Positions 11,619 through 44,588 of a stretch of 64,000 bases of DNA are shown here, piece after piece. Every line of letters begins with the position of its first letter. Positions within the stretch are counted from its first letter, which is position 1. The stretch lies in the sequence record NZ_CP090008.1, one strand, 5' to 3'. Source of the DNA: a plasmid. Position numbers and translations under genes: made by a program. The notes beneath the pieces are model-generated. The model was not told the DNA's origin. It was given only the letters and a program-made list of their open reading frames with translations, and did no database searches.

Positions 11619-11638
11619 GTCTTTAAGAGGTATACTTT

Positions 11639-12853: not shown

Positions 12854-12856
12854 CCT

Positions 12857-16239: not shown

Positions 16240-16281
16240 GGTGTCACTGGGTTACGAACGTCCCATACTGTTTTGTAGAAT
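16240..16281 (+). promoter_or_regulatory. promoter: GGTGTCACTGGG element + TTACGA -N18- TAGAAT
   Basis: Conserved element copy 2; ~35 bp upstream of CDS 16313. Confidence 0.5.
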
Positions 16282-16312
16282 AGGGAAGAATAATGTTTAT
16301 GGAGGAAATGAT

Positions 16313-17149: not shown

Positions 17150-17160
17150 AAGGAGTTCAC

Positions 17161-19122: not shown

Positions 19123-19145
19123 AAATGGTGAAAGGGGGAAATACA

Positions 19146-19451: not shown

Positions 19452-19454
19452 ATA

Positions 19455-20153: not shown

Positions 20154-20156
20154 TAT

Positions 20157-20579
20157 ATGGTATCTTATCGTTTTAAACGAGATGGTCAGTATATTCAACG
20201 TGAACTAGAACTAGATTCTCTTAATGGTTATCAAGACCAAGTCTATCCGGAAAGCCTCGAAGAGCAAGTAGATTATTCAGCGTTTTACGATACCTACTAT
20301 GACGGTTTTGGTGAGGACAGTATCTCACGTGAACAAGAGAAAAAACAAGGTCTCATTGCGCGTGGGAAAGAAAGGTTATCCAGTGTCAAGGAGGATGTGA
20401 CAGACTATTATAATTTGCAAGTGGAACGTCACAAAGACTATTACTCAGATGAAGATTCATTTTGGATGCGTAAGCAACAACAAAAACGAAATCGAAAATT
20501 CATTAAACAAAGTATCTTTCTTGCCCTAGGACTATTACTTGTATTTGGTTGGTACTGGCTAACCGCACTACTTCATTAA
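20157..20579 (+). CDS. hypothetical protein with C-terminal TM anchor
   Basis: Operon-packed; C-terminal IFLALGLLLVFGWYWLTALL. Confidence 0.4.
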   Translation: MVSYRFKRDGQYIQRELELDSLNGYQDQVYPESLEEQVDYSAFYDTYYDGFGEDSISREQEKKQGLIARGKERLSSVKEDVTDYYNLQVERHKDYYSDEDSFWMRKQQQKRNRKFIKQSIFLALGLLLVFGWYWLTALLH

Positions 20580-20596
20580 GGGGGTGACTAAGATAT

Positions 20597-22642
20597 TTGA
20601 AACGAATAGGTGATAAAGCTGCTCGTGTTCTTCTAACGATTTTTGGAGTGAAGACAACCATTATTATAGGAACTATTTTAACTTTTGCGGTTATCTTAAT
20701 TGCAATTATCACTGGTTTAATGGGGACGATTAGTACTTCCGGTGGGAAAGGTGGCAAGACTAACGCCCAATGTGTAACCTACCAAAAAGATGGCGATGAA
20801 GAAGACGATGATGGCTCTAAGCCTCAATCGACTTCTACTAAAACAGACTCAGCATCTGCAAGCGATTCTGATCCCTTTACGAAGGGGACAAAAGCCTATG
20901 AAAATGCCCACAAAGTCTTTATGGCCTTAGTGAATGCCGGACTGTCTGGGGAATCTGCTGCAGGTCCTGTTGGTTGGGCAAACTCTGAAGGGGGCTATGA
21001 CATCATTGGACGTGCCCAAGGACATTATGGTGGTGGTATCAATGACTCCATTTCTAAGGGAGCTGTTCCAACGACAGGTGGTACGTCTAACACACTTGGT
21101 GGTGGTGGAATCTTCCAGTTTGACCCCTTCACGAAATATGCACCTTTAAATAGTCCAGACTGGGAAGATGCTGATAAGATGGTTGCCTTTGTTATTGATG
21201 CAATCTCAAAAGGTGACTGGAACCCAGCCTATGACGAATCTGGCCATAACTGGTCATTCCAGGAGTTTGCTAAACAAACCAATATCGATGAAACTGCTAT
21301 GGCATGGAATGCCTACGAACGAGGTAATATGGCTTATGTCAGACCAGAGCAAAAGAAGGCGGATGCAAGGAAGTTTGCGGAAGTCTTCGAAGCAAGTAAA
21401 TATAAGTACGATGATGCCAAGTTCCAAAAGGCGTTTGGTGGTGGTGGAGCTTCTTCCAATAACTCCTCGTCAAGTAGTCAAAGTTCAGATGATGATAACG
21501 GTGACGACGATGAAGAAGATAGCGACAACGAAGACAATGATAACGATAGCAGTTCAAGTAGTTCATCAAGTGACTCTAGCAACAAGGATAGCAAAAAAGA
21601 CAGTGATAAAGACAAGAAGTCTATTGATACTGATAAGGCTATCAAGTGGTATAAGGATAAGCTAGGGAAGGTCAAGTATTCTCGTGATGCTCGTACTGGG
21701 CCAGATAGCTATGACCATTCATCTGCTCTATACTATGCCCTTGTTGACGGTGGTGCTAAAGAATCTGGTTCTCCAGTAGATACCGATTCAGAACACGATT
21801 GGTTGAAAGATAATGGTTATGAGTTAGTGTATGAGGGTGCCTGGTTGTCTAAAGATGATGTTCAAAACCGTGAAAAAGGAGATGTCATTATCTGGGGTAC
21901 GAAAGGTAGTAGCTCTGGAGATAAAGGACAGACCATGCTTGTTGAGGATAAGGAAAATATTATCCAATGTTCCCCATCGACAGACGGGATTGCTGAGAAC
22001 AATTATGGTCAATATCGAGACCGTATTACTATGGACTACGGAAAAGTCTATGTCTATCGTCCAAAAGAGTCAAAAGACAAGAAGGGTAAGGATGATGACA
22101 AGGAAGAAGTAGATGCAGATACGTGTGGTGATAGCGATAGTAGTAATCTCAATACTGATACAGGTCAGCCCCTTGATGTCCCTTATACCATTACCCAACT
22201 TTTCGGTGCATCAGCTAATGCTGGCGGTCCAAATGCAGGTTCAGGGCACACAGGAATGGACCTTGCAGCACCAGAAGGCTCTCCAATTTCTGCCGTAACA
22301 GACGGTGAAGTAGTAGAGGTCAATGAAGAGGCGATGAATATCGATGGTAACCACGTGATGCACACTCTTCCAGATGGCACTATTATATATTATGGACATA
22401 TGCGTGATGTTCCTCTTGTTAAGAAAGGTGATAAGGTCAAAAAAGGACAACTTATCGGGTATGTCGGACAAACGGGTGCAGCTACTGGACCACATATTCA
22501 CTTTGAACGTCGAAAAACGAAAGTCTTCCAGTATGGTGATTTCTTGAGTCCAGCATCAATTATTTTAGGAGATACCCAACCACAAGTTGGAATGGTGATT
22601 GATCCTAAGACACAAAAAGGTGGAGCACCATCTAAAGAATAA
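20597..22642 (+). CDS. membrane-anchored peptidoglycan hydrolase (CHAP/Amidase_5-like domain + Peptidase M23 domain), TTG start
   Basis: N-terminal TM; central KYSRDARTGPDSYDHSSALYYAL (Amidase_5/CHAP-like motif); C-terminal M23 motifs GHTGMDLAAPEG...HMRDV...GPHIHFE; Asp/Ser-rich linkers. Confidence 0.7.
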   Translation: MKRIGDKAARVLLTIFGVKTTIIIGTILTFAVILIAIITGLMGTISTSGGKGGKTNAQCVTYQKDGDEEDDDGSKPQSTSTKTDSASASDSDPFTKGTKAYENAHKVFMALVNAGLSGESAAGPVGWANSEGGYDIIGRAQGHYGGGINDSISKGAVPTTGGTSNTLGGGGIFQFDPFTKYAPLNSPDWEDADKMVAFVIDAISKGDWNPAYDESGHNWSFQEFAKQTNIDETAMAWNAYERGNMAYVRPEQKKADARKFAEVFEASKYKYDDAKFQKAFGGGGASSNNSSSSSQSSDDDNGDDDEEDSDNEDNDNDSSSSSSSSDSSNKDSKKDSDKDKKSIDTDKAIKWYKDKLGKVKYSRDARTGPDSYDHSSALYYALVDGGAKESGSPVDTDSEHDWLKDNGYELVYEGAWLSKDDVQNREKGDVIIWGTKGSSSGDKGQTMLVEDKENIIQCSPSTDGIAENNYGQYRDRITMDYGKVYVYRPKESKDKKGKDDDKEEVDADTCGDSDSSNLNTDTGQPLDVPYTITQLFGASANAGGPNAGSGHTGMDLAAPEGSPISAVTDGEVVEVNEEAMNIDGNHVMHTLPDGTIIYYGHMRDVPLVKKGDKVKKGQLIGYVGQTGAATGPHIHFERRKTKVFQYGDFLSPASIILGDTQPQVGMVIDPKTQKGGAPSKE

Positions 22643-29869: not shown

Positions 29870-30337
29870 ATGGCAGAAAATATAAAAAACTGGGTTAATG
29901 TGTGTGTAGTAAAAAACAATAAAATTCTTTTACTTAATAGACAACATGATGATTTTCCTGGATGGATTCCTCCAGGTGGGAAAGTAGAGTTTCCTGAAAG
30001 TTTCTTTGAAGCTGCTATTCGAGAATTAAAAGAGGAGACTGGTCTAACTGCTTTAAATTTAAAATTAAAAGGTATTTCTGGATTTACCAATACTATTGGT
30101 AACGAAAGGTTCGTATACTACGATTTTTTGTGTACAAATTTTTCTGGAGATATTCGTGCTTCTAGAGAAGGAGAACCTAAATGGTGGAATTTAGAAGATA
30201 TTGAAGAAATATCTATGCAAGAAGAAATTAAAAATAGGTTGCCCCTTTACTTACGTGAAGGAAGTTTTGAAAGTATTAATTACTGGGATGAGTCAAAAAA
30301 ATGTATTAGCCATAATAAAACAATTTTGTTTGATTAA
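29870..30337 (+). CDS. NUDIX hydrolase (MutT-like)
   Basis: Nudix box GGKVEFPESFFEAAIRELKEETGL. Confidence 0.75.
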   Translation: MAENIKNWVNVCVVKNNKILLLNRQHDDFPGWIPPGGKVEFPESFFEAAIRELKEETGLTALNLKLKGISGFTNTIGNERFVYYDFLCTNFSGDIRASREGEPKWWNLEDIEEISMQEEIKNRLPLYLREGSFESINYWDESKKCISHNKTILFD

Positions 30338-30463: not shown

Positions 30464-30995
30464 GGCTCTATAATTTCTGTAGTAGGTAAAACCACTGTAG
30501 GAATTATGGAGTCTATGTTTTTGTAGAAAAAAAGCCCCATAAGACCTATAATGAAAAAGTGGCCAAACCCTCATTAGAAAGAATCTTATGGAACAATTAA
30601 ATTTTATCACAAACATACTTGGAATTAATGACAAAAATATTTTTATCTTAGATTATCTTGATGCTGGAACGCATAAAGAAGTCATTGCTAAGCTCGATTA
30701 TCCTGCCTCTAAATGTCTCAACTGTCAAGGACAAATGGCTAAATATGACTTTCAAAAAGAATCCAAAATCCCCTACCTCGAATGTGCTGGCTACAAGACT
30801 CTCATTCGATTGAGAAAACGCCGTTTCCGCTGTAAAGACTGTGGAAAACATACTAAGATTAGTAGTGAAGAAATCTCCGATGGGAGAGAGTACTCACTAC
30901 TTTTTCTTTATGTTAAAGTAGTGGTGTCTTGTAAAGTCGTAGGGCTCTATGGCGCTAGACGTCGCTTGACAAACTGGCAAGACACCTTGTTTTAG
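30464..30995 (+). mobile_element. ISL3-family IS left end + truncated transposase (N-terminal 90 aa only)
   Basis: GGCTCTATAATTTCTGTAGTAGGTAAAAC terminal repeat; ORF 30588 N-terminus MEQLNFITNILGI...CLNCQGQMAKYDFQKESKIPYLECAGYKTLIRLRKRRFRCKDCGK is the ISL3 zinc-finger N-domain, then frame decays. Confidence 0.7.
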
Positions 30996-31091
30996 GTGGA
31001 GTTTGATCAAAGTATGTGGGACGCTAAACGTCGCGTATTGAAAATATAATCACTAAAACATGGAATTATTCAAGACAAAAGAGGTAATGTC

Positions 31092-32015
31092 ATGCGTGCA
31101 GTATTTGGAATTGATGTAAGTAAAACAAGCTCTGAGGTGGCCATTTTAGTCAACAGTAAGAAGATTAATGGCTACACCATACTCAATGATGCCATTGGGT
31201 TCAATCGCCTGTTGGGCGACTTGAAAACTGTTCATAAACCAACTTACGTGCAGGAAGAAGTTTATCAACACCTGCGTGATTTAAGCCGTTTCTATCAAAA
31301 TATGACAGAAGATCTTGTTCAAACTAAAAACTGTCTGCACAAGGTCCTACAAGTCACCTTTCCTGAATTGGAAAATCTATTATCCACCCCTACTGGAGAG
31401 CAATATTGGAACTTAGTGATGGCTTTTCCATGCAAAGAGTTTATATTAAGCTTATCTCAAAGTAACTTGTGTGAGATTATCCGTCAATCTACCTCCAAAC
31501 GCATCTCTGAAAAGCGTATTGCTTACCTGACTGATAAACTTATAAAACTTGCTAAACAATCTCTTTGTGCGGTCAAGAAAACCTCTCCAATGCTTGAAGA
31601 GGTTCGTTACTATGCTCAAGAATTGCTTCGTCTTTCTGAACGCAGACAAGTTGTCTTAAACGACATGGTAGCTCTAGCTCAGCCTTTACCAGAATATGAC
31701 ATCTTACGGTCAATTCCTGACATCGCAGAAATCACAGCGACATCTATCATTGGCGAATTGGAAGATATTCGTCGCTTTCAGTCTACCAATCAAATCAACG
31801 CTTTTATTGGCATTGACCTGAGACACTATGAATCTGGGAACTTTCTCGCCAAGGAACACATCACTAAACGAGGTAATCCCTATGTCAGAAAAATCTTGTT
31901 CAAGTGCATTCACAACATCGCTTCAGCTAGTCATACCAATCCTTGTCATATCCCAGATTTCTATGAGAAATGTATTACCTCATTACGCATAACAAACTTT
32001 ACGATTACTCTTTGA
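31092..32015 (+). mobile_element. IS110-family transposase (possibly C-terminally truncated, 307 aa)
   Basis: MRAVFGIDVSK N-terminus and DEDD-type N-domain typical of IS110; shorter than usual ~400 aa. Confidence 0.65.
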
Positions 32016-32542: not shown

Positions 32543-32773
32543 ATGAATGGGATAGGTTATATACTTAGGAGGTTACGGAAAGAAAAAGGGATTACACAGA
32601 GAGTTATCTATACAAATCTTTGTAGTCGAAAGCAACTTTCTAGGATAGAAAATAATACATCTTTCCCATCAGTATATCTTTTATATCATATTTGCCAAAG
32701 ATTAGAAGTGACAATAGATGAAGTTATCAAATTAACATTAGAAGGAGAAAGTAATGGCAATCAGCACAAGTGA
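32543..32773 (+). CDS. short XRE/Rgg-like HTH transcriptional regulator (76 aa)
   Basis: ILRRLRKEKGITQRVIYTNLCSRKQLSRIENNTSFPSVYLLYHICQRLEV; overlaps start of QueA-like gene. Confidence 0.6.
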   Translation: MNGIGYILRRLRKEKGITQRVIYTNLCSRKQLSRIENNTSFPSVYLLYHICQRLEVTIDEVIKLTLEGESNGNQHK

Positions 32774-33800
32774 ATTAAAGTATGAATTACCGGTCGAATT
32801 AGCTGCTCGACAACCTATAGAACTGACATCGAGTAGAAGGGATGGAACTAGATTAATAGTAGGTTTTAAAAACTCTCAAAAAATCATTGATGATGTTTTT
32901 ACAAATTTTACTAACTATATAAATTCAGGAGACTTACTTATTTTAAATAATAGTAAAACAATTTCACCAATTTTTTATGCATATTCCGATAAATATGGAG
33001 AGGTGAAATTTCATATTAAGACTAAGACTGATTTAGGATATGTATCATATATCAGAATTAGAGAAGATTTAAAAGATAAAATTATTGGTGAGAACTTTAT
33101 TGTAACTGATGAAATAGAAGTATCTGTAAATAAACGAACTGAAGGCGATGAATTTTTGTGTAGTTTTAATTGTTCTGAAGAGGATTTGTATAACTATTTA
33201 TTAATTAATGGTGAGGCAGTGAAATCAATTTATACAAAGAAAAAATGGTCAATTGATTATTATCAAAATGAAGTTGCAAATAAATTAGGATCTTTTGAAA
33301 ACCCAGCAGCGAGTCGGCACTTTACTAATAAAATGTTAAATATTTTACGTGAAAAAGGGGTAAGAATCGCGTATATTACTTTAAATTGTGCTTCGGTTGA
33401 TACAAAAATTTTTGAGGATATTATAGAGAAACATGTTGTTTTTAAGGAATACTATGAGATCCCCGAAGAAACAGTAAGATTAATTCAAGAAACAAAATTA
33501 AACGGTAATAAGGTGTTTGCGGTTGGAACTACAGTTATTAGGACTTTAGAAAGCTGTAATTATGATAATTTCAGAATTACTTCCCCTTTAAAAAATTATA
33601 CTGATTTATATATTCATCCTGGACATAATTTTAAAGTAACAGATGCTTTAATTACAAATTTTCATGGATCAATGACTAGTAGACTTGCTCTTTCTGCAGC
33701 TGCAATTGGTGTGGATAATATTATGAATTTATACAAACATGCAATCGAAGAAAAATATTTATTTTATGAGTTTGGGGATGCGAATTTATTATTCATGTAG
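32754..33800 (+). CDS. QueA-like S-adenosylmethionine:ribosyltransferase-isomerase paralog
   Basis: Collinear with QueA: YELPVELAARQP..., GDLLILNNSKTI, VGTTVIRTLES (QueA VGTTSTRTLE), ITNFHGSMTSRLALSAA, YKHAIEEKYLFYEFGDANLLF (QueA YxHAxEExYRFFSFGDAMLI). Confidence 0.75.
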   Translation: MAISTSELKYELPVELAARQPIELTSSRRDGTRLIVGFKNSQKIIDDVFTNFTNYINSGDLLILNNSKTISPIFYAYSDKYGEVKFHIKTKTDLGYVSYIRIREDLKDKIIGENFIVTDEIEVSVNKRTEGDEFLCSFNCSEEDLYNYLLINGEAVKSIYTKKKWSIDYYQNEVANKLGSFENPAASRHFTNKMLNILREKGVRIAYITLNCASVDTKIFEDIIEKHVVFKEYYEIPEETVRLIQETKLNGNKVFAVGTTVIRTLESCNYDNFRITSPLKNYTDLYIHPGHNFKVTDALITNFHGSMTSRLALSAAAIGVDNIMNLYKHAIEEKYLFYEFGDANLLFM

Positions 33801-33831
33801 TTTAGTAAATAACTAGAAAGGGGGTGATGAT

Positions 33832-33906
33832 ATGAAGAAGTTGACATTGAAAGAACTGGTTGATAAAAATAATGATTTGCTCTCACGTTGCACAATCAAT
33901 AAATAA
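33832..33906 (+). CDS. candidate 24-aa precursor peptide MKKLTLKELVDKNNDLLSRCTINK
   Basis: Strong RBS AAAGGGGGTG 6 nt upstream; located between QueA-like and PqqD-like genes. Confidence 0.4.
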   Translation: MKKLTLKELVDKNNDLLSRCTINK

Positions 33907-33972
33907 TTAACCACGGAAAAATCCAATGAAGAATGATATTATTTCTTCATTGGAGTTTATTTTGGAGGGCTT

Positions 33973-34239
33973 ATGCTTTATAAAGTTAATCGAGACGTAG
34001 AAATAACAGAAGAAAATGGATATCAAGTTATTCATAGATATTCAGATGATTCGTATTTTTCCTTAGAAAATGATACTTTGTTTATTTTATTGAGTTATAA
34101 TGGTTTAAATAAATTGCAAGATATTGCAAAAAGCTTTGCAAAATATAAAGGAATTTCTAATAACAAAGCTTTAGAATACGTAGAACAAATCCAAAAATAT
34201 TTAGTTTCAGAAGGAATAATTGTCATAGATGAGAACTAA
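33973..34239 (+). CDS. PqqD-like (RiPP recognition element) protein
   Basis: 88 aa; ...FSLENDTLFILLSYNGLNKLQDIAKSFAKYKGISNNKALEYVEQIQKYLVSEGIIV matches PqqD pattern. Confidence 0.55.
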   Translation: MLYKVNRDVEITEENGYQVIHRYSDDSYFSLENDTLFILLSYNGLNKLQDIAKSFAKYKGISNNKALEYVEQIQKYLVSEGIIVIDEN

Positions 34240-35095
34240 ATCTAAGTTATTTAATAATATAGCAGAAGATAATATAGACTCCCTTTATGTACAATTGTGT
34301 AATTTAATATATAAAAATGGTAAAGTTGTAATTTCGAGAGGCATGGAGGTAAAAGAATTAATTGGGGTTAACTTAATTTTAACTAATCCCAAAAGACGCT
34401 TTTTAGAAAATGCCAACAGAAAATTAAAACTATACTACGCTATTGGAGAATTCATATGGTATATGAGGGGGAGTAATAGTTTAGAGGAAATTCAGTATTA
34501 TGCCCCTAGCATGTCACAGTTTTCTGATGATGGTTCTATTCTTCAAGGAGCTTATGGACCTAAGATTGTAACTCAAATCGATAAATTGATTACACTGCTA
34601 AGACATGACAAGGGGACTCGTAGGGCAGTTTTACCTATTTATTCTGCGAGTGAATTAGGTAAAGATAGTAAAGATATCCCATGCACACTCACATTAGAGT
34701 TTTTGATTCGAGCTAATAAGCTTCATCTCATTGTCAATATGAGATCAAACGACATATTTTTGGGGCTTCCGTATGATATTTTTTCTTTCACAATGATTCA
34801 GGAATACATTGCAAATAAGATAGGTCTAAATTTAGGATATTATTATCATAATATCGGAAGCTTACATGTCTATAAGAAACATTTTGATAGAATAAAAGAA
34901 ATATCAACTATGAATATACATAAAACATCAGAATTCAATAACTCAAATTTAATCTTTAAAAATTTAAGTGATTTGTTAAACATTGAAAAATCAATTAGAA
35001 ACGGAAGTCCATACAATATGAGCAAGGAATTACTTAATAATTCGGATTTCAATAGAATAAAGATTGAACTAGAGAAATATAAGGATAGTAGGTGA
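34229..35095 (+). CDS. thymidylate synthase-fold pyrimidine-nucleotide hydroxymethylase/methylase-like enzyme
   Basis: LKLYYAIGEFIWYMRGS (ThyA WKGVLEELLWFLKGS), RRAVLPIYSASELGKDSKDIPCTLTLEFLIRANKLHLIVNMRSNDIFLGLPYDIFSFTMIQEYIA (ThyA RRIIMSAWNP...PPCHALCQFYV...[25 protein letters not shown]); catalytic Cys retained. Confidence 0.7.
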   Translation: MRTKSKLFNNIAEDNIDSLYVQLCNLIYKNGKVVISRGMEVKELIGVNLILTNPKRRFLENANRKLKLYYAIGEFIWYMRGSNSLEEIQYYAPSMSQFSDDGSILQGAYGPKIVTQIDKLITLLRHDKGTRRAVLPIYSASELGKDSKDIPCTLTLEFLIRANKLHLIVNMRSNDIFLGLPYDIFSFTMIQEYIANKIGLNLGYYYHNIGSLHVYKKHFDRIKEISTMNIHKTSEFNNSNLIFKNLSDLLNIEKSIRNGSPYNMSKELLNNSDFNRIKIELEKYKDSR

Positions 35096-35098
35096 GAA

Positions 35099-35683
35099 AT
35101 GTCTATCGGAAAACTAATCTATATATGTGGAATTGATGGTTCTGGGAAAACAACATTAGCCAAGAATCTTTCTAATCATTTTGGTGATAAATCAATATTT
35201 TTGCCATTAAATAATTCAAAAAGATTCATTAATGAAATTGATAGTTTCTGTAAAGAGTATAATACAGACAGGTGGAGTATATTTTCAGAATATTTTAGGG
35301 GAAATATTTGGGCGTTAGAGCTAGTTTATTTTTGTGAAAATATTTTAAAACCCGCTCTAAAAAAGTACGAATATGTATTCATCGATAGATATTATATATG
35401 TAATGCTATATATTCTAATTTATTAGTCACTAATAAGTTGGTTAATAGACTGCATGAATTACTGATTAAACCAGACATGGTTTTTTATATCAATATTAAT
35501 CCAGAGATCGCTTTTGAAAGAATTTTAAAAAGGAATGAGCAAAAAACGCCGAAAGAAAGTTTGGACAATTTAAAATTAGCTTCTGATTTATATTCAAGAT
35601 ATCTTGAAGATAAAAGTTATTATGAATTAGACGGAGAGAAGTCAGAGAATCAAATTTTAAAGTCTGTATTACAAATTATTTAG
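35099..35683 (+). CDS. dTMP-kinase-like P-loop nucleotide kinase
   Basis: LIYICGIDGSGKTTLAKNL (Tmk Walker A GIDGxGKTT); 194 aa. Confidence 0.65.
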   Translation: MSIGKLIYICGIDGSGKTTLAKNLSNHFGDKSIFLPLNNSKRFINEIDSFCKEYNTDRWSIFSEYFRGNIWALELVYFCENILKPALKKYEYVFIDRYYICNAIYSNLLVTNKLVNRLHELLIKPDMVFYININPEIAFERILKRNEQKTPKESLDNLKLASDLYSRYLEDKSYYELDGEKSENQILKSVLQII

Positions 35684-35699: not shown

Positions 35700-36689
35700 A
35701 TGAAATTTGAAACAGTACTAGATTTTTATATATACTATTTGGAAATCCTTCTGAAAAGGGAAAAAAATCATACTAAAGTTGTCCCATTTTCGGAGATAGC
35801 TAATAAAGTCGAGGTTTTCAACAATAGTATTGAGATTGTTCAAGGAACTCATAGTAATATGCTATTTAGTAGATCTGAATTTAATTATAATGTAGTGCAT
35901 ATGCTATATTCTTTGAGTGGGAGAACAGATTCATATATATTAAAAAAATATAAAAGTTCATATTGGCGATATTCGAATGAGGGATTTTATGTCAATACAA
36001 TTGGGGAGCGGTTATATACTTTATATGGTAATCAAATTAAACGTTGTGTAAATTTTTTAAAAGAAAATATTTATACGTCAGATGCCGTTTGTTTTATGAA
36101 ATCTTTTGAAAATGAAAATATTGAATGTACTCTAAATCTTCATTTTTATTATAGAGATAATCGATTAAATTTGGAGTTATCATATAAAGGTTCTAGTTTA
36201 TTAGAGTATACTAACTCCGATCTATTTATTTATTCTTCTTTACTTTCATTAATGAGCCATTGGTTAGATGTGGAACCTGGAAGTTTATTTTTAAAATGTC
36301 ACTCGATTTTTATTTCAGAAAATGATCTAGAAAGAGCTAAGAAACTATTAGAAATTGGTAAATCGTTGAGAAATATTGGTATTTCAATGAATCATAGGTT
36401 TTCATCCAGTATTGAAACTTATCGTTCAGAATTTTCTGAAGCTATCAATAGAATAATTGCTTGGGATACTGTTGATATTACTCAGAGAGTTTCTGAGGAA
36501 TTAGAGTATATAAAAAAGTATTTTACTCCATATATTCAAGACTTGTTACTTATTCTTTTAGCGGATAGATTTCATCAAACTGATAGTGATTATAAAATAG
36601 TATTGAGTCAGCTCTCAGATAGGTCAATTGGGAAATTTAAGGAAACAATTGATAAAATACAATTTAATAAATTATTAGAGGTAATTTAA
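35700..36689 (+). CDS. second thymidylate synthase-fold paralog
   Basis: SDAVCFMKSFENENIECTLNLHFYYRDNRLNLELSYKGSSLLEYTNSDLFIYSSLLSLMSHWLDVEPGSLFLKCHSIFI aligns to ThyA C-terminal half incl. catalytic Cys position. Confidence 0.55.
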   Translation: MKFETVLDFYIYYLEILLKREKNHTKVVPFSEIANKVEVFNNSIEIVQGTHSNMLFSRSEFNYNVVHMLYSLSGRTDSYILKKYKSSYWRYSNEGFYVNTIGERLYTLYGNQIKRCVNFLKENIYTSDAVCFMKSFENENIECTLNLHFYYRDNRLNLELSYKGSSLLEYTNSDLFIYSSLLSLMSHWLDVEPGSLFLKCHSIFISENDLERAKKLLEIGKSLRNIGISMNHRFSSSIETYRSEFSEAINRIIAWDTVDITQRVSEELEYIKKYFTPYIQDLLLILLADRFHQTDSDYKIVLSQLSDRSIGKFKETIDKIQFNKLLEVI

Positions 36690-36691: not shown

Positions 36692-36952
36692 TTGATAATT
36701 AAAAAGAGTCTTGCTGCTATACAACGTTCAGTATCAGGAAATGAATTTTTGTTAAATTTACTTACTGATAGGACTTTTCTCCTTAATGAAGTTTCTCTCT
36801 ATATTTGGAGTAATCTTGGAGAATGTAGTACTGAGGAAATAGCTGCAAATTTATCTAAAATGTATAATGAAAAAACCGAGATAATTCAAAATGATGTAGA
36901 TGAAGTTATTAATATTTTACAGGAAGAAGGGTTAATTGAAATTCTGAATTAA
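36692..36952 (+). CDS. PqqD-family RiPP recognition element protein (TTG start)
   Basis: LLNEVSLYIWSNLGECSTEEIAANLSKMYNEKTEIIQNDVDEVINILQEEGLIE = classic PqqD pattern. Confidence 0.65.
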   Translation: MIIKKSLAAIQRSVSGNEFLLNLLTDRTFLLNEVSLYIWSNLGECSTEEIAANLSKMYNEKTEIIQNDVDEVINILQEEGLIEILN

Positions 36953-36970: not shown

Positions 36971-37657
36971 ATGGCTGAAATTATTTATAGTATGATTGCT
37001 AATGAGATTTCAGAGCAATTGTCAGAGGATAATATTGTAATTTGGAAATCTGAGATGGATGGACTGGGGACCTCATTATCTGATATCGATGCATATTGTA
37101 TCTGCAAGGAAGAAAAAGTAATAAAAAGCTTTGTATATGAAGGGACACCGGTTGATATTGAATATGTGACTTCGGAAAGGCTAAAAGCTAAAATTAATAA
37201 AATTTATCAATACACTAATCATGGTGATATTTATAAAGGATTAGATGAAGATTTGAAATTATTTTACAGATTACAAAGAGGAGAGAAATCAGCTAAATTT
37301 TCATTGATTGGAGTTGAAGTTCCCACACTTGAGGAAATTTCTAAGATTGCAGCACAATATTATTATGAATTATTTTTAGGTCTGTATGAAGATGCTTATA
37401 AAATGTACCATGGGAAAAATAAATTAGATTCTTTTGTCCTTTCCCTAGAGACATTACAAATGTCTATTGCAACTTATTTAGCTAGGGTAGGGAAACCACA
37501 ATTTAAGAAAAAATGGCTATTTAAATATTTTAATATAGTAGCTAACAATTCCCTATATAAAGATTTAATTACACAATTAGAATCAACACAGGAATATGAT
37601 TTAATGGAATTCACAGAGAGTATACTAGTCAATTCAAAAAAGCTTCTAGAAATTTAG
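36971..37657 (+). CDS. Pol-beta superfamily nucleotidyltransferase
   Basis: MDGLGTSLSDIDAYCI (G[SG]x9-13Dx[DE] motif). Confidence 0.55.
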   Translation: MAEIIYSMIANEISEQLSEDNIVIWKSEMDGLGTSLSDIDAYCICKEEKVIKSFVYEGTPVDIEYVTSERLKAKINKIYQYTNHGDIYKGLDEDLKLFYRLQRGEKSAKFSLIGVEVPTLEEISKIAAQYYYELFLGLYEDAYKMYHGKNKLDSFVLSLETLQMSIATYLARVGKPQFKKKWLFKYFNIVANNSLYKDLITQLESTQEYDLMEFTESILVNSKKLLEI

Positions 37658-37857
37658 TATATTGAAAGGAGGTGAGATTATGGTCTATAAAAAACCTATT
37701 GTTGAAGATATTAAATTAAGTGCCTCTGCATTACTTGTATAATATCTTAGTATAAGTCGGAGAGTTGAACAGAATAATTATGTAGTTAATATGACTAACA
37801 GGAAGTATTACTACAAAAAATTCTGTTCAACTTTCCATTTTTTATAGAGTAATAAAA

Positions 37858-38664
37858 ATGAGCAAAATTAGGTATATCATAATAAAGATACTATTACATC
37901 AATTTTACGGAATCAAAAATATAAAATTAATAAATTGTGTTAAAAATATGAATAAAGTTTATATTTTTGAAGATATCAACAAAAAGGTCAAAATGGTTTT
38001 AAAAGTAGAATCTGAAAGAAGAATTAATTCGATCAAGTACCAACATATATTTTCCAATTATGGGATATCGCCAAAAATAATTAAAACTAGAACAGGAAGA
38101 CAGTATATAAAGATTTATAGATTGGTAATATTTGTACAAGAGTATGTAACATCTAGTAAAAGAAAGGTCACTTCAACAGAGATTGTGGGATTTTTAAAAT
38201 ATTTTTACGGAAAAATGGATGAAATAAGAGAATATTTACCCGAAGTTTTGACTACTTATCCATTATATAAGCAAGGCGCATTAAGTAAATGGTTTTATGT
38301 AGTCCATGGTGATTTACGTCCACAAAATATTATCATTACCAGGGATAGTTTTAGCGTGATTGATTTTGAGTATTTAAGTCTAGGAATTCGAGAAACTGAA
38401 ATTCTCAAGTTAATTATAATAATTTGTAAATATCAAAGTAATTTGATTGAATCGCTATATTCTAAATTCTTAGAATCAGACGTAATAGAAATGCATATAG
38501 AGGAGGCGATAAGGGTTCTTTTGTATGATCTTCTTAAATCAAATTTTCCTGAAAAGGTCAAGAATAATATTCCAAAGAATTATTTTTTAGAAATAACTTC
38601 TGAAAGGGAGGCATTAATAAACTTTTGCCATACATATTTAAAAAGAAAGGAATCCCAAAAATGA
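37858..38664 (+). CDS. APH/choline-kinase-like phosphotransferase
   Basis: FYVVHGDLRPQNIIITRDSFSVIDFEY (HGDxxxxN ... IDFE catalytic/Mg motifs). Confidence 0.6.
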   Translation: MSKIRYIIIKILLHQFYGIKNIKLINCVKNMNKVYIFEDINKKVKMVLKVESERRINSIKYQHIFSNYGISPKIIKTRTGRQYIKIYRLVIFVQEYVTSSKRKVTSTEIVGFLKYFYGKMDEIREYLPEVLTTYPLYKQGALSKWFYVVHGDLRPQNIIITRDSFSVIDFEYLSLGIRETEILKLIIIICKYQSNLIESLYSKFLESDVIEMHIEEAIRVLLYDLLKSNFPEKVKNNIPKNYFLEITSEREALINFCHTYLKRKESQK

Positions 38665-39710
38665 TTTCAACTGAGATTGAGAAAAAATATCTACTTACAA
38701 AAGAAGAATTTCTATCCTTTAGTAGAGATTTTTTTAAAAGTGCAAAAATTCAAGAACAAACTAATTATTATTTTGATAGTTTAGATTTTTCACTATTAAA
38801 GAGAGGAATGACTCTTAGAATTCGAGAAAAATATGATAAATATATTTTAACATTAAAGAAAAAGAAATCAGTCAAAATAATTGTAGAATCGGAAGAAATT
38901 AATTTCGTAATTACACCGCAAGACTTTCAAGAGGCAATCTTAACTGGAGAATTTCCCCAAAATGTAAAGAAAGAACTAGACTCATTAATTCCCGAAAAGA
39001 AAATTTTTTATCTAGGTTTTCTAAAAACTAAAAGATATGTAATCGAAAAAAATTCTTTGATATATTGTTTAGATAAAAATAATTATTTTGGAAAGGAGGA
39101 TTTTGAATTAGAAATTGAAGGAACAGAGAAAGGACTAAAAGAAATTGAAATTGATATTTCCAAGAGCAAATCTAATAATGTTGGAAAATATGCTAGATTT
39201 ATTGATGAATTATTGAAAGGAAACGGTAATTATCTGATTAAAACTCAAGTGTCTGCAATTATTCTTAATAAAAGTAGCGATAAAGTTTGTCTTATTAAGA
39301 AGGATATTCCAACCTCAAGTATACATAATATGTGGCTTCCACCCGGTGGACATATCGATTTTGGAGAAAATTTAATAGATGCTGTCAAAAGAGAGGTCTA
39401 TGAAGAGACAGGGTTAGAAGTTACGGTTTCAAAATTATCTAGCATTGTATCGTTTCATCAAAAAAAGGCAGAGCAAGCTATTTGTTTCTTTTATGTCGCA
39501 GAATCCCAAAATATTAATGAAATAAATGTCACTGAGCCAGGCATTGAATGCAGGTGGTTTAATTTAAAAGATATACTAAGTGGAGATGATATAAATATGA
39601 CATCCTATCATAAGCTTATAATATCCGACTTGCAAGATAACAGGATTTTATATTTGAATTTAAAAAAATCTGATAATCAATATAATATTGAAAATATAGT
39701 TCATATTTAA
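38661..39710 (+). CDS. CYTH (triphosphate tunnel) - NUDIX fusion protein
   Basis: N-terminus MISTEIEKKYLL (CYTH EIE[RK]KFL start); C-terminal Nudix box GGHIDFGENLIDAVKREVYEETGL; ATGA overlap with kinase gene. Confidence 0.6.
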   Translation: MISTEIEKKYLLTKEEFLSFSRDFFKSAKIQEQTNYYFDSLDFSLLKRGMTLRIREKYDKYILTLKKKKSVKIIVESEEINFVITPQDFQEAILTGEFPQNVKKELDSLIPEKKIFYLGFLKTKRYVIEKNSLIYCLDKNNYFGKEDFELEIEGTEKGLKEIEIDISKSKSNNVGKYARFIDELLKGNGNYLIKTQVSAIILNKSSDKVCLIKKDIPTSSIHNMWLPPGGHIDFGENLIDAVKREVYEETGLEVTVSKLSSIVSFHQKKAEQAICFFYVAESQNINEINVTEPGIECRWFNLKDILSGDDINMTSYHKLIISDLQDNRILYLNLKKSDNQYNIENIVHI

Positions 39711-39894
39711 AAGATTAAAACTAGTTATATATAAAATCTAGGTATAACTGTTCCACTGAATTCCATAGATATAATTAGCTTCTTAAATGTAGGGCTATTT
39801 TATAGCTTGAATATACAATATAAGTGCACAATAAAAACTCATAAGATTTTCTAGTAAAATAGAATTGAACGAACTAGTTACGAAAGGAAATCTT

Positions 39895-40881
39895 ATGAGC
39901 TACCATCATTTTACTATAGATGAACGTGAAAGCATTCTCGTTTACCGTACGCATGACCTAAATTTTTCTCAAATTGCTAAATCACTTCATCGTCATTAGT
40001 CTAGCAGTAGTGGTGAGTGGCAACGACATCTTAAAGAAGGAAGCTATTCTCCAAGTCATGCATAGGAATCTTATCATATGGCTAAATCACACTGTGGGCG
40101 GAAACGTATGCTTGAAATAGATCACAATTTAAGCAATACCGTCAAACATCTATTTCTCGATTACCAATGGTCTCCCGAAGAAATAGAAGGTCGGTTGCGA
40201 TTAGAGTATGGAAAAACTGTTATTAGTTATCAAACAATCTATAGAGCCATTTACAGAGGGCATTTTGATGATAACTCACTATCTCATGGTGCTCGTGGTG
40301 TCATTCGAAAGCTCCGTCATCGTGGTAAAACACGTCATACAAAAGGTTATGTCGAAAATAGAGGGAAAATCTCTATATCTCATACAATTCACGAAAGACT
40401 AGAAGATGCTAATAACCGAACTAGAATAGGAGATTGGGAAGCCGATACTGTTGCAGGTAAAACTAGAAAAGCTTGTTTAGTGACTCTAACTGACCGTTAT
40501 TCTCGTTTTCTAAAAATCCAGAAGGTAGCTGTCAAGAAAAGCAAGTTGGTAATAGAAGCTATGGTAAAAATGTTAGAGCCCTTGACGAAGCATACAATAA
40601 CTCCTGATAGAGGGAAAGAATTCACGTATCATCAGAAATTGAGCGATCAATTGAACATTGAAGTCTATTTTCCTGACCCTCATGCTCCATGGCAACGAGG
40701 AACCAATGAGAACACGAAAGGATTACTTTGAGAGTATTTTCCAAAGGGTAGTGATCTAACATTGGTTGATGATCAGACTATTCAGCTGTGGGAGAACAAA
40801 CTTAATAATAGGCCACGAAAATGTCTTAACTGGAAAACACCTTATGAAGTATTCTATGGGGAAAGTATGCACTTAATTTGA
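39895..40881 (+). pseudogene. IS30-family transposase, disrupted by stop codons/frameshift
   Basis: MSYHHFTIDERESILVYR...(stop)...RIGDWEADTVAGK...TPDRGKEF...HAPWQRGTNENTKGLL(stop)EYFPKG; reading frame broken at least twice. Confidence 0.7.
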
Positions 40882-40953: not shown

Positions 40954-41745
40954 ATGCTACTAGCTGTAATAAGAAGAAACTGGCAGATGTATAAAAGATA
41001 TTTTCCAGTAACATTGTTTTTTAATAGGGGTTTGGATGCTGGTTTTACTCTATTAGGTTTGTGGTTAATAGCGAATTTTTTATTCGCAAATAACATTAAA
41101 GTTGGTAATGCTATAGAGTACTCAGATTACTTCAGTTATGCTGCAGTAGGATTGGTTTATTATAATGCATCAATTGCTATTCTGATGAATGTAGGGAGAG
41201 CATTAATAACAGAAGTTAGAGAAGGCACTCTTGAAAGTACATTAGTATCTCCTTTTAACATTGTCTATTATTACTTAGGAATCTTTTTAGAGCAGTTTGT
41301 AAGGACCTTTTTGGAATTTCTATTTTCTTATATAATTGCTATTTTGCTCGGTGCAGATTTACAACAAATTACATTACTGATTTTATTGCTTGGCTTCTTA
41401 TATGTTTCGATTTGCTCTTTTTCGATGGGGGTATTCCTATCAAATATAATGTTGTGGTTTAGGGATACATTCATTAGTCAAAATACAATTTTTCTGATAA
41501 TCTTCTTGGTCTCAGGCATTACCTTTCCAATAGAATTATTGCCAAAATTTTTAAGGGTGATTAGTAATTTTATACCGTTAACATATTCTATTAAGGCAAT
41601 AAGAACCTTATATTTGGAAACCCAGACGAGTATGATCAATCTTAGCTTTATACAAGGTTTACTACTTTCAATATTATACTTCTTGATAGGGATTCTGGTA
41701 TATAATAAGGTTGAGAAAAAAATTGTAAGTGATGTTTCATATTAA
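40954..41745 (+). CDS. ABC-2 type exporter permease
   Basis: 263 aa, 6 TM helices. Confidence 0.6.
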   Translation: MLLAVIRRNWQMYKRYFPVTLFFNRGLDAGFTLLGLWLIANFLFANNIKVGNAIEYSDYFSYAAVGLVYYNASIAILMNVGRALITEVREGTLESTLVSPFNIVYYYLGIFLEQFVRTFLEFLFSYIIAILLGADLQQITLLILLLGFLYVSICSFSMGVFLSNIMLWFRDTFISQNTIFLIIFLVSGITFPIELLPKFLRVISNFIPLTYSIKAIRTLYLETQTSMINLSFIQGLLLSILYFLIGILVYNKVEKKIVSDVSY

Positions 41746-41763
41746 GTGAAGGAGAGAAATAAA

Positions 41764-42744
41764 ATGTATGAAGTATTCAATATTTCAAAAGATTATGTAA
41801 CAAAAAAGAGAATAGGATTGTTTAAACATAAAAAAGAAGTTAAAAAAGCTATACAAGATGTAAATTTATCAGTCCCTAGAGGTAAAATTATTGGTGTTTT
41901 AGGAGAAAATGGTGCAGGGAAAACAACTTTAATAAAGATGATGACAACACTTCTATCAAGTGATACTGGAAAAATTTTGATAGATGGAGTTGACATTAAT
42001 CAAAATGTAAAAAATACTCGAAAAAGGATCAACATCATTAGTGGAGGAGAAAAAAATCTCTATTGGAGATTGACTGCAGTTGAAAATTTACTCTATTTTG
42101 CTTCTCTGTACGGTCTTCCAAAGAAAGAGGCATTACCTAAGATAGATAATTTATTGAATGAATTAGGGCTTTGGGAAAGTAAGGATACTCCTGTAGAAAA
42201 ATTTTCAAAGGGAATGAAGCAACGCTTACAAATTGCTAAAGGACTAATCAATGATCCAGAATATTTATTTCTTGATGAACCTACACTAGGTCTAGATGTC
42301 AGTATTGCTTACGAGTTGAGAAAAAAATTAAAAGAGATAGCGGCTAAGCGGAATACAGGAATTTTGTTAACAACTCACTACATGGCTGAAGCAGATGAAT
42401 TATGTGATTATATTTATTTTTTAAAACATGGTAAAGTAATTGTGTCAGGTACCAAAACACAGGTTTTTGAACAATTACAGATGACACCAGAGCTTCATGT
42501 CATCCTTTCAGATAGGGATGATGAAAATTCTTCAAAGCTGGCTCAAGTTAGTCGTTTATTTCCATGTATAATTTTGGAAAAATTTGGTAGTAGTATATTG
42601 TTGAAATTCTCTCTTTCAGAATATAATGTGCAGGATATAATAAAAAGCCTATATAATAATCAAATTGAAATTAAGGAAATAAGATATAATGAGCCTACTC
42701 TTGAAAATGTTATTCTAAATTTAGGAGGAAAGAGCTTAAAATGA
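41764..42744 (+). CDS. ABC transporter ATP-binding protein
   Basis: Walker A GENGAGKTT, LSGG-like KFSKGMKQRL, Walker B LFLDEP. Confidence 0.75.
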   Translation: MYEVFNISKDYVTKKRIGLFKHKKEVKKAIQDVNLSVPRGKIIGVLGENGAGKTTLIKMMTTLLSSDTGKILIDGVDINQNVKNTRKRINIISGGEKNLYWRLTAVENLLYFASLYGLPKKEALPKIDNLLNELGLWESKDTPVEKFSKGMKQRLQIAKGLINDPEYLFLDEPTLGLDVSIAYELRKKLKEIAAKRNTGILLTTHYMAEADELCDYIYFLKHGKVIVSGTKTQVFEQLQMTPELHVILSDRDDENSSKLAQVSRLFPCIILEKFGSSILLKFSLSEYNVQDIIKSLYNNQIEIKEIRYNEPTLENVILNLGGKSLK

Positions 42745-43535
42745 ATTCGATAATAGTTAGTACTTTTAAGAGTGAATTTAGAAGAACATTTTTAAATGAC
42801 AGTATTAATAAATTTTATTTTTTTTCAATGATACTTTGGCCAATTATTTCTCTAATTCAAATTTTTTACAATATGCAAGCCTTTCCAATTACGGATATAC
42901 AAATAGCATCTCTAAGATATGAAGACCAATTAATTTATTTTATATTTATTGGTTATTGTGTTTACATCATTTTTTCAAATGCTGTTCAGAGTGCATGGAG
43001 GCTTGGTGGAGAACGATATCAAGGAACTCTTAGTCAAATTTTTATTGCTCCAATTAAAAAAAATCTATGGCTTTATGCACGTACCTTATCACTTATTTTA
43101 AGTAATTCATGGTTTTTTATCACTATTTTTATTATTGGAAATTTTGTCTATTCTGATGCTTATGAATATATTCTTGCGTCCACTTTTATTTTAGTTGTTG
43201 CATCCTGGATTTGGGCAAGTTTCTTAGGTAGTATTTGTATCAGTTTGAGAGATGCAACGGTAGTTTATGTATTATTGGAGAGCTCTCAAAATACTTTTAG
43301 TGGTGCTAAAGTTCCATTATCAAAATCACCTCGATTAATAAAAGTTATAGGGAGTTTATTTCCCATTAGCTACACAATTATTTATCTAAGAGATATACTT
43401 CTTTATAAAGAGATTATAAGTATAAGTGCTATTTGGTGCTTATGCATAAATATCTTTGTTATTTTATTAACGAAGATAGTGTTAGAAGTTGGAGAAAGAC
43501 ACATGAAAAAAGTGGGCAGTTTTGATTTATTTTGA
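42741..43535 (+). CDS. ABC-2 type exporter permease (second)
   Basis: 264 aa, 6 TM helices, ATGA overlap with ATPase gene. Confidence 0.6.
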   Translation: MNSIIVSTFKSEFRRTFLNDSINKFYFFSMILWPIISLIQIFYNMQAFPITDIQIASLRYEDQLIYFIFIGYCVYIIFSNAVQSAWRLGGERYQGTLSQIFIAPIKKNLWLYARTLSLILSNSWFFITIFIIGNFVYSDAYEYILASTFILVVASWIWASFLGSICISLRDATVVYVLLESSQNTFSGAKVPLSKSPRLIKVIGSLFPISYTIIYLRDILLYKEIISISAIWCLCINIFVILLTKIVLEVGERHMKKVGSFDLF

Positions 43536-43789: not shown

Positions 43790-43988
43790 CTACCATATTT
43801 TCAACCTTGCAATCAAGTGCAATACATATTTTCAATAAAATATCAGTAGTGATATTTTCCCCTTTTCCTAATTTTGCTAGAGAAGAGGAGCTAATCCCTA
43901 CTTCTTGCCGGAGCTTTGTTTTGATTCAACCTTTATCAATGAGAAGTTTCCATAATTTATTATAACTAAACTTCATCTGAGTTTTTTC
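43790..43988 (-). pseudogene. XRE-family HTH protein with in-frame TGA
   Basis: rc reads MKFSYNKLWKLLIDKG(stop)IKTKLRQEVGISSSSLAKLGKGENITTDILLKICIALDCKVENMVEIVD. Confidence 0.55.
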
Positions 43989-44588
43989 CTTTGTTCCATG
44001 AAATACCGTAGAGTTCATTTCCGTTACTAGAGAGTCTCAGTACAGTATTTTCTGACAAGAGATGATTAGCTTCTGGATAATACGAGATAGCTTTATCAAA
44101 GGATAAAAAGACTTGTTTGTTCAATGATTTTGATTGGTCATATAGCTTCAACAGGGCTTCGGTTGCTTGGTAACTAATATTACTTAAGAGTAATGAATCA
44201 TGGGCAAGTGCTGGAAGATTAGTTAGATAGAGTATTGCTAAATCGTACAATATCATTCCTTTGAACTTAGTTCCTGTACCGTCGTCGTCAGGGGTATAGA
44301 AGGAATAGCTATTATAGGTTCTGAGGATAATTTGAGGAGCTTTGCGAATATCTGGATAAAGGAAATCATTGAATTCTCGCATTTTAGCATTGATTTTTCC
44401 TTCTAGCTCTATTAGAATGTGATCCAACGCTACTGTATTTTCAAAACTAATATATTCTGTTGGGTTTTCAATCCCATAAACAGATTGCAGTAGGTCTAGC
44501 CAAAAAGACTGGCTCTCTTGTCTTTCTCTACCACGGTTTTCCCAACGCTTAATAAAAGCCTTGGCTTGTTTTTTTCTGTTCTCTAGTG
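43966..44588 (-). pseudogene. N-terminal fragment of an MmeI-like (Type IIL/IIG) restriction enzyme or related PD-(D/E)xK protein; frameshift in A7 tract
   Basis: rc: ATG AAC ACT AGA GAA CAG AAAAAAA then, in the +1 frame, QAKAFIKRWENRGRERQESQSFWLDLLQSVYGIENP... (cf. MmeI N-terminus ...KRWEDASDENSQAKPFLIDFFEVFGI as I recall it); ORF stops after ~207 aa. Confidence 0.35.

Follow-up and report, generated by a model that had tools for sequence, protein, structure and literature searches.

The 64,000-nt stretch of plasmid record NZ_CP090008.1 analysed here (the window) carries an operon in which a gene for a QueA paralogue is followed by a 24-codon open reading frame (ORF), ORF1, and then by a gene for a small PqqD-like protein. 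On comparative evidence, ORF1 is a real, conserved peptide gene. Its product, peptide A, is probably a genuine substrate of a recognition element for peptides that are made on the ribosome and modified after translation (a RiPP recognition element, or RRE). Peptide A and a second small peptide of the operon, peptide B, most likely supply the peptide substrates of the cluster, the specific chemistry of which is much less certain. Our best reading is an undescribed RRE-dependent pathway to exported peptide-pyrimidine-nucleotide hybrids, its chemistry being deduced from the gene content. A preliminary description of this DNA had listed two small ORFs between the QueA paralogue and the PqqD-like gene. 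Both are there, but the second, ORF2, is not a gene.

Homologous clusters were recovered with three queries: the very divergent ThyA-like protein (MilA-like 2 below), the first ThyA-like protein and the 228-aa protein of the window. The loci compared with the window cluster are given L-numbers and fall into six independent lineages: the window with a 94%-identical relative (L011); the Streptococcus mitis and Gemella copies (L003-L006 and L018); three metagenome loci counted separately (L007, L028 and L030); and Brevibacillus panacihumi W25 (L016). Two loci, L002 and L029, were too short for use. L020, a long metagenome contig, was excluded as evidence as a probable assembly error. Both of its peptide genes are frameshifted at homopolymer runs (8099 and 12001) and its enzyme match is weaker than those of other S. 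mitis-type copies; the frameshifts most likely reflect long-read assembly error rather than decay.

ORF1 starts with ATG at 33832 and stops with TAA at 33904-33906, giving the product MKKLTLKELVDKNNDLLSRCTINK. In all six lineages the QueA paralogue and the first small PqqD-like gene are separated by a same-strand ORF of 23-49 codons, and the homologues of peptide A are preceded by Shine-Dalgarno (SD) sequences of 9-14 nt. Position, orientation, SD and reading frame are all kept in six divergent clusters, and the plus frame of ORF1 is the only frame open in 5/5 lineages tested. The SD of ORF1, AGAAAGGGGGTGAT, can pair over 14 nt, with one G:U, with the 3′ tail of Firmicute 16S rRNA. The pattern AAAGGRGGTGA occurs twice in the window (0.07 sites expected), upstream of ORF1 and of the ORF at 37680, and a looser 9-nt scan returned the same two as the sole SD-led small ORFs of at least 20 aa. 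The preliminary description had called the ribosome binding site (RBS) of ORF1 the strongest in the cluster, which is nearly right: it is one of the two top SDs, but the canonical AAAGGAGGTGA at 37665-37675, ahead of the ORF at 37680, is at least its equal.

Between the window and S. mitis, the synonymous difference (pS) in peptide A is 0.65 and the non-synonymous difference (pN) 0.19, a pN/pS of about 0.3, although dN/dS cannot separate ORF1 from the frame antisense to it because wobble positions are shared. The constraint is unevenly spread. Codons 1-12 hold five synonymous differences and one non-synonymous (pN 0.03, pS 0.79), and codons 18-24 are near neutral (pN 0.39) save for Cys20 and Lys24. 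In one S. mitis strain the start is GTG for ATG, with the frame retained. These data argue that the N-terminus of ORF1 is under purifying selection; conservation had been proposed earlier as the check on this ORF, and it came out in favour of ORF1 in all six lineages.

In an alignment of five lineages only Met1 and one Cys are invariant, and the sixth lineage has this Cys too. Conservation covers residues 1-17 and gives way to a variable tail, with a local core motif [FL]-[SNA]-x-C-x that occurs three times in tandem in the Brevibacillus peptide. The C-terminal residue of type-A peptides is K, S, A or Y; a terminal Lys is found in 3/6 lineages and is penultimate in a fourth. As judged from the alignment, the pattern is that of a leader followed by a short core with a conserved candidate modifiable residue. 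The leader-plus-core architecture next to an RRE, as first proposed for both small ORFs, therefore stands for ORF1 and falls for ORF2, which consists of a hairpin and an RBS spacer. Of the two modification sites suggested at that time, the internal Cys is invariant and the TINK tail is not conserved. The Brevibacillus homologue is 49 aa long, is annotated as a hypothetical protein (T458_24500) and carries three tandem xKCRx core repeats; its leader is nearly identical to that of peptide B of the same locus.

Two other accounts of this DNA were considered and rejected. An ORF on the opposite strand, at 33813-33926(-), lacks a strong SD and is broken by stop codons in both L028 and L016, and no listed ORF of at least 20 aa corresponds to it in L007. 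ORF1 is not a C-terminal extension of the QueA paralogue either, since the latter ends at a stop of its own and spans the whole Pfam model.

Peptide A of the window lies 66 nt upstream of the PqqD-like gene, RRE-1, an arrangement common to the six lineages, as is the QueA paralogue directly upstream of peptide A. RRE-1 of the window has no match in Pfam or NCBIfam, yet a profile of six positional orthologues matched the PqqD-2 family in hhalign (98%, E 2e-13) and, in the PDB, TbiB1 (E 2.5e-4), another lasso PqqD chaperone and PqqD. Its AF2 model (pLDDT 90.6) has a beta-beta-beta-alpha-alpha-alpha layout, in agreement with the three-stranded sheet and three-helix winged helix-turn-helix (HTH) of the RRE fold. 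The top Foldseek matches of the model were the leader complexes of TfuB1 and TbiB1 (TM 0.79-0.85), followed by the RRE domains of TigE, ThcOx, MccB and McbB. The label 'PqqD-like' given to this gene at the outset was thus well chosen, and profile, model and fold matches together identify RRE-1 as a bona fide RRE.

The second peptide gene, at 37680-37742, is the more deeply conserved of the two and had not been linked to ORF1 in the preliminary description. Homologues of peptide B are found in 6/6 lineages, with extra copies as a third Brevibacillus peptide and one each in L008 and L017. The Tyr and Pro of the motif YxxPx[LIVM] are the sole invariant residues of the peptide-B-type alignment. 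YxxPxL at -17 to -12 is the lasso-leader motif bound by PqqD-type B1 proteins (PMC10368454). In 8/10 peptide-B-type sequences the C-terminal residue falls exactly 17 after the motif Tyr (counted from the second motif in the 37-aa Brevibacillus peptide), that is, at the 'core +1' register of a lasso precursor. Its identity differs among the sequences (V, I, R, T, A and others). By its alignment, peptide B is a leader with a one-residue 'core', and a variable residue at this register points to chemistry at the C-terminal carboxylate. The third Brevibacillus peptide, at 14320-14379 of L016, is an unannotated 19-aa YxxPxL peptide with a perfect SD, followed by a third PqqD gene (14451-14705).

Every cluster has as many peptides as RREs: two of each in the window, S. 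mitis, L007, L028 and L030, three of each in B. panacihumi, and one of each in L008 and L017. Only in Brevibacillus does peptide A carry YxxPxL and resemble a peptide B leader, and a Pfam PqqD score for RRE-1 is confined to Brevibacillus and L008. Elsewhere RRE-1 has no Pfam match (for S. mitis this is presumed from its 67% identity to RRE-1 of the window) and peptide A lacks the Tyr and Pro. This suggests that peptide A has co-diverged with RRE-1, and such parallel divergence, in what is a small sample, is as predicted if peptide A were paired with RRE-1 and peptide B with RRE-2. The coordinates of these and the other features of the cluster are collected below.

Table. Features of the peptide/RRE cluster, in window coordinates
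Feature	Position	Strand	Description
XRE-family HTH regulator	32543..32773	+	76 aa; first gene of the operon; Pfam HTH_19/HTH_3
QueA paralogue	32754..33800	+	SAM ribosyltransferase-isomerase fold; PF02547 1.4e-73, full length
Extended SD of peptide A	33815..33828	+	AGAAAGGGGGTGAT
Peptide A (ORF1)	33832..33906	+	24 aa; leader about residues 1-17, short core around invariant Cys20
RNA hairpin	33922..33954	+	stem 33922-33933/33943-33954, 12 bp, 9-nt loop; holds ORF2 ATG
'ORF2'	33926..34000	+	not a gene; SD/start of the next gene plus hairpin read in another frame
RRE-1	33973..34239	+	stand-alone 88-aa divergent PqqD-family RRE
MilA-like 1	34229..35095	+	MilA-like pyrimidine C5-(hydroxy)methylase (ThyA superfamily); Pfam Thymidylat_synt 1e-29
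NMP kinase	35099..35683	+	thymidylate-kinase-like; PF02223 2.4e-22; TIGR00041 just under cut-off
MilA-like 2	35700..36689	+	very divergent MilA-like enzyme; Pfam 2e-5; C-terminal extension of ~100 aa
RRE-2	36692..36952	+	PqqD family; PF05402 2.4e-11, weak lasso_PqqD matches; alignment A2
ANT-like enzyme	36971..37657	+	228 aa; ANT(4')/kanamycin-nucleotidyltransferase-like, Pol-beta fold
Peptide B	37680..37742	+	MVYKKPIVEDIKLSASALLV; 20 aa; YxxPx[LIV] leader motif; directly after the 228-aa gene
Intrinsic terminator	37754..37846	+	long hairpin and U-run; fold -36 kcal/mol, z = -6.3
APH-like phosphotransferase	37858..38664	+	APH/protein-kinase fold; PF01636 1.3e-5, TCAD9
CYTH-Nudix fusion	38625..39710	+	CYTH (triphosphate tunnel) and Nudix; PF01928 3e-21, PF00293 2e-15
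ABC-2 type transporter	40954..43535	+	permease, ATPase and second membrane protein; Pfam

The QueA paralogue scores under the NCBIfam cut-offs for the QueA equivalog, and the S. mitis and B. panacihumi genomes each encode a canonical QueA (E about 1e-143) in addition to the cluster copy, which marks the latter, on profile scores, as a true paralogue rather than the housekeeping enzyme. The nearest solved relative of MilA-like 1 is the CMP 5-hydroxymethylase MilA (5b6d/5jnh, E 4e-37), against about 1e-19 for true ThyA. Read from the sequence, MilA-like 1 presumably has an Asp at the position of the Asn that specifies dUMP in E. coli ThyA (LPYD vs. LPFN), which is a lead and not a test. The profile of MilA-like 2 also prefers MilA (8e-14) to true ThyA (about 1e-8), and Cys143, at the catalytic position, is invariant (alignment A5); the protein lies directly 3′ of RRE-1 in four lineages and has only three close relatives among 5.8e9 protein clusters. 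The ANT-like protein of the window has no Pfam match of its own, but 11-16 of the 29 members of its family match NTP_transf_2, Polbeta or MTPAP-like. Residues S27, D38, D40, D62 and E64, the S, D.D and D.E catalytic motif of nucleotidyltransferases, are invariant in this family, of which there are only 34 representatives in 1.84e9 proteins. Its AF2 model (pLDDT 92.6) found 3c18 and ANT(4') (6un8/1kny) as the top Foldseek matches.

The APH gene is present in all related clusters. CYTH and Nudix are fused in L011 and L030, and are separate genes in L007, L016 and L028. The ABC-2 genes are contiguous with the cluster in L011, L007, L016 and L028, but separated from it by an insertion sequence (IS) in the window. 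Extra genes in relatives encode CPBP/Rce1-like membrane proteins, Nudix or MazG proteins and a dCMP deaminase. ABC-2 transporters and CPBP/Rce1-like membrane proteins are usual at bacteriocin loci. A PADLOC run on the cluster proteins gave generic P-loop, Nudix and HTH matches only, and no defence system. The HTH regulator occupies the same position in L004, L007 and L011. It overlaps the QueA paralogue by 20 nt (32754-32773), and downstream genes also overlap or abut (34229/34239 and 36689/36692). This suggests translational coupling throughout the operon, unlike the free-standing and strongly initiated peptide genes.

We tentatively propose that the two peptides, each with its own PqqD-type chaperone, are coupled to a C5-modified cytosine nucleotide by ANT-like, ThyA/MilA and QueA chemistry. 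From the gene content we infer that the leaders bind the RREs, which enzyme serves which peptide, that the Cys and the C-terminus are modified, what the product is and that it is exported. The order of the operon (HTH regulator, QueA paralogue, peptide A, hairpin, RRE-1, MilA-like 1, kinase, MilA-like 2, RRE-2, nucleotidyltransferase, peptide B, terminator) would yield two abundant peptides and less enzyme. ORF1 would be highly translated and its N-terminal ~17 residues would dock on RRE-1 as a leader; RRE-1 would then offer the Cys20 core to an adjacent enzyme, either the QueA paralogue or MilA-like 2. The MilA-like enzymes and the kinases would make a C5-(hydroxy)methyl cytosine nucleotide, and the exocyclic-methylene intermediate of the ThyA/MilA family, or the hydroxymethyl product, could be captured by the invariant Cys of peptide A. 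The QueA paralogue would probably move a SAM-derived ribosyl or cyclopentyl unit onto an amine, and the ANT-like enzyme, recruited by RRE-2, would act at the C-terminus of peptide B. CYTH-Nudix may clear toxic nucleotide by-products, and the ABC-2 system may export the product, protect the producer, or both. The product would likely be one or two peptide-pyrimidine-nucleotide conjugates, resembling a Trojan-horse bacteriocin. The earlier idea of a peptide plus nucleotide adduct fits the set of MilA-like enzymes, nucleoside monophosphate (NMP) kinase and ANT-like nucleotidyltransferase.

Several observations weigh against this proposal. The window has no evident leader peptidase, CPBP-type proteins being found in relatives only, and no radical SAM (rSAM), YcaO, LanB/C/M, ThiF/MccB, lasso B2/C or PEARL protein was found among the genes scanned. 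Peptide A of the window lacks the YxxP residues known to contact PqqD-type RREs, and because of this its binding to RRE-1 is something we only infer. The independent lineages number only six, so that arguments from covariation rest on small numbers. Lastly, a module of MilA-like, APH-like and thymidylate-kinase-like genes occurs with neither RRE nor peptides in L012 (7189-20348) and L014 (8738-12128); the nucleotide part could therefore arise independently of the peptides. In L012 the module is accompanied by an adenylating enzyme, a carrier protein, glycosyltransferases and ABC exporters, with an agr locus adjoining. In L014 it is accompanied by MazG, with integrase and reverse transcriptase genes next to it. 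Judged by its gene neighbourhoods, the module that makes the nucleotide seems to be a portable unit.

A variant of the proposed pathway is that peptide A, peptide B or both are disposable scaffolds of the pearlin type, a small nucleoside-derived molecule being assembled at the Cys or C-terminus and later released, so that no ribosomal peptide would remain in the final product. Peptide B, which is nearly all leader, with a fixed 17-residue register and a variable C-terminal residue, is what a scaffold might look like. It resembles the leader-only scaffolds of the pearlins (3-thiaglutamate, ammosamides), in which a short RRE-bound peptide presents its C-terminus. Relatives carry CPBP-type proteases, and L008 (2955-13803), a larger variant cluster from a metagenome, adds an ATP-grasp enzyme, a carrier protein, a decarboxylase and an HFCD flavoprotein beside a peptide that ends in Cys. 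Unlike the pearlin clusters, however, this one has no PEARL (LanB-like, Lant_dehydr) domain, which excludes membership of that class by Pfam and NCBIfam, and no tRNA-dependent enzyme or aminoacyl-tRNA logic; nor is there an obvious protease in the window. We regard the scaffold version as unlikely. It would be a sub-variant of the hybrid pathway rather than a contradiction of it, and only chemistry would separate the two. L008 itself encodes a QueA paralogue, one PqqD protein, a MilA-like enzyme and the 29-aa YRKPKL peptide ending in Cys. Its HFCD flavoprotein is of the Cys-decarboxylase family, and its other genes specify, in addition to the ATP-grasp and carrier proteins, an acyl-CoA dehydrogenase, an Orn/DAP decarboxylase, an NTP_transf_5 protein and a dCMP deaminase.

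The hairpin behind peptide A lies between its stop codon and the SD of RRE-1 and has a fold energy z-score of -4.1. Equally placed hairpins fold in L011, L004, L007 and L016 (z -2.7 to -5.5), giving 5/5 lineages with the window included, and one is seen by eye at this spacer in L028 and L030. The stem sequences differ among lineages; the S. mitis stem has G-to-A in its 5′ arm and the matching C-to-T in its 3′ arm. A stem-loop directly 3′ of the precursor gene is a familiar element of bacteriocin operons, and by analogy the one seen here fits differential expression of peptide and enzymes: it would likely let the mRNA and protein of peptide A build up beyond enzyme levels. The terminator hairpin of the window ends the first transcription unit, and hairpins are also found 3′ of peptide B in L007, L008 and L028.

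The same anatomy, a short ORF followed by a stable hairpin ahead of the next SD, is that of an attenuator, and the operon does open with a regulator. Peptide A might then be a functionless cis-regulatory leader peptide (an upstream ORF), the translation or stalling of which remodels the hairpin and gates the downstream genes. We consider this quite improbable, for ORF1 ends 16 nt ahead of the stem without reaching into it, and no competing antiterminator pairing came to light. A scan for consensus terminators was empty at the hairpin. The SD of peptide A is also maximal, not modest. Furthermore, the core occurs in three tandem copies in the B. panacihumi homologue, which also carries an RRE-binding motif, and the peptide count follows the RRE count. 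Peptide B, a gene of the same style, can regulate nothing downstream, because it sits at the 3′ end of the operon before the terminator.

Conservation shows that ORF1 is a gene and not what it does, and small signalling peptides are common in streptococci; ORF1 could in principle encode a pheromone, an immunity or regulatory peptide, an enzyme subunit or another small protein that is not itself a substrate. Yet peptide A has no signal peptide, no double-glycine leader and no nearby Rgg/ComR-type receptor, the regulator being a 76-aa XRE protein, and its strict adjacency to an RRE across distant hosts, combined with a leader/core pattern, is the hallmark of an RRE substrate. Such a role is accordingly given a very low probability.

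ORF2 runs from ATG at 33926 to TAG at 33998-34000, and the window and L011 alone keep this frame open. From its ATG, S. mitis has only 9 codons before a stop, and there is no equivalent in L007, L016 or L028. Since it is the hairpin and not the ORF2 frame that is conserved, we explain ORF2 as a by-product of the hairpin and of the SD and start of the next gene. It had been described as an ORF with a weak RBS overlapping the PqqD-like start, which is correct: it has no good SD and overlaps the SD and start (33973) of the RRE gene. That it is translated as a second precursor, as was also suggested, is extremely improbable despite 24 open codons, one of them a Cys codon, kept in the 94% relative, since its SD is weak, its ATG is paired within a conserved 12-bp stem, its frame is lost outside that relative and it runs into the RRE-1 start. 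For annotation, ORF1 and the ORF at 37680 should be called genes and ORF2 should not; for genome mining, peptide-B-type genes have 19-25 codons and are missed by gene callers.

The system resembles several known ones and belongs to none of those compared. RRE-1 is closest in structure to the stand-alone PqqD-fold RREs of lasso clusters (TbiB1 and TfuB1, ~85 aa), and the YxxPx[LIV] motif of peptide B lies in the lasso register with Tyr at -17, as does the YxxPxL of B. panacihumi peptide A. Peptide A of the window, in contrast, lacks the Tyr and Pro of the motif, and neither a B2 cysteine protease nor an asparagine-synthetase-like cyclase domain was found in any cluster gene. A lasso core has ~15-25 aa with Asp/Glu at 7-9, whereas peptide B ends at core +1 and the tail of peptide A has 5 residues. 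Membership of the lasso class was rejected given the absent cyclase and B2 protease and the lack of a core capable of forming a macrolactam.

Microcin C, the relatives of which include cytidine-type variants, is the closest functional analogy. It too joins a very short ribosomal peptide to a nucleotide (a presumed one in our case), with export or immunity genes and house-cleaning hydrolases at the locus, and the RRE-like clamp of MccB is among the fold matches of RRE-1. The cluster differs in having no ThiF/E1-like MccB, its sole nucleotidyltransferase being the ANT(4')-like enzyme of Pol-beta fold, in having peptides of 20-49 aa rather than 7 and with no C-terminal Asn, in a nucleotide that is probably a cytosine C5-modified by MilA-like enzymes, and in the presence of a QueA paralogue. 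Without a ThiF domain or a heptapeptide-scale precursor ending in Asn, it was not assigned to this class. MilA, of mildiomycin-type peptidyl-nucleoside pathways, is the nearest solved relative of both ThyA-like proteins, which retain the Cys of the catalytic position; ribosomal peptides and RREs play no part in those pathways, and the second enzyme of the window is extremely divergent with its C-terminal extension. As for QueA, which acts on preQ1-34 of tRNA, the paralogue matches PF02547 over its full length, but is below the equivalog level, coexists with canonical QueA and is embedded in a peptide/RRE operon.

A search of the full-text literature returned no description of this cluster type, and in the same search, RRE genome-mining papers included, QueA or ThyA family members were never tied to PqqD/RRE proteins or RiPPs. 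The logic of RRE and leader peptide has precedent, and the enzyme set has none in the literature searched. RiPP classes are defined by their tailoring chemistry, and we know of none that relies on a QueA homologue, an enzyme of the ThyA/MilA family or one resembling aminoglycoside nucleotidyltransferases. We are aware of no role outside tRNA for a QueA homologue, nor did the searched literature describe one. If the proposed pathway is correct, it would be the first QueA chemistry outside tRNA and the first case of a ThyA-family or ANT-family enzyme acting on a RiPP, and would amount to a new route to peptide-nucleotide hybrids, the concept of microcin C reinvented with other enzymes. It would also provide two compact RRE/leader pairs for engineering and functions for orphan QueA and ThyA paralogues. 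The cluster is carried by streptococci linked to the human mouth and to abscesses (S. intermedius, S. mitis group, Gemella) and by Brevibacillus, and competition within the oral microbiota could then be shaped by it.

The cluster is rare. It is present in one of 401 sampled species genomes of Streptococcaceae and in one of 61 sampled genomes of the order of Brevibacillus, with no further copies in either sample, and RRE-1 has 8 protein clusters among 5.8 billion. A metagenome scan with the MilA-like 2 profile found S. mitis-type copies only, L020 among them; a word-based search with the RRE-1 profile added no cluster to those already known, and blastn of the cluster against plasmids gave trivial matches only. 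The QueA paralogue of the window groups with a Streptococcus intermedius protein, which makes this species the probable source of the window.

Mobile DNA surrounds the locus in the window. An ISL3-type zinc-ribbon fragment and an IS110-family transposase (30588-32015) lie between a Nudix gene (29870-30337) and the HTH regulator, and an rve-integrase IS (39865-40731) lies between CYTH-Nudix and the ABC-2 transporter. L011 has neither interruption, so that the window cluster may be partly uncoupled from its transporter. Further upstream, positions 9255-22642 resemble an integrative conjugative element: 9255-11198 encodes a ClpB-like double AAA protein, 17161-19122 a P-loop protein resembling TraG/VirB4, and 20597-22642 a CHAP/M23/lysozyme cell-wall hydrolase. 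A mobile element may carry the peptide cluster or adjoin it, which would fit the cluster's patchy distribution.

Downstream, a 153-aa DUF2326 ORF on the minus strand (43966-44427) has a 552-aa counterpart in L011, where an HTH gene lies before it and an MC7-domain gene after it; by comparison, the copy in the window looks truncated. At 50624-53164 the window encodes an LPXTG-anchored adhesin of the antigen I/II family (BspA variable, AgI/II C2 and P1 N-terminal domains), which fits an oral or anginosus-group streptococcus.

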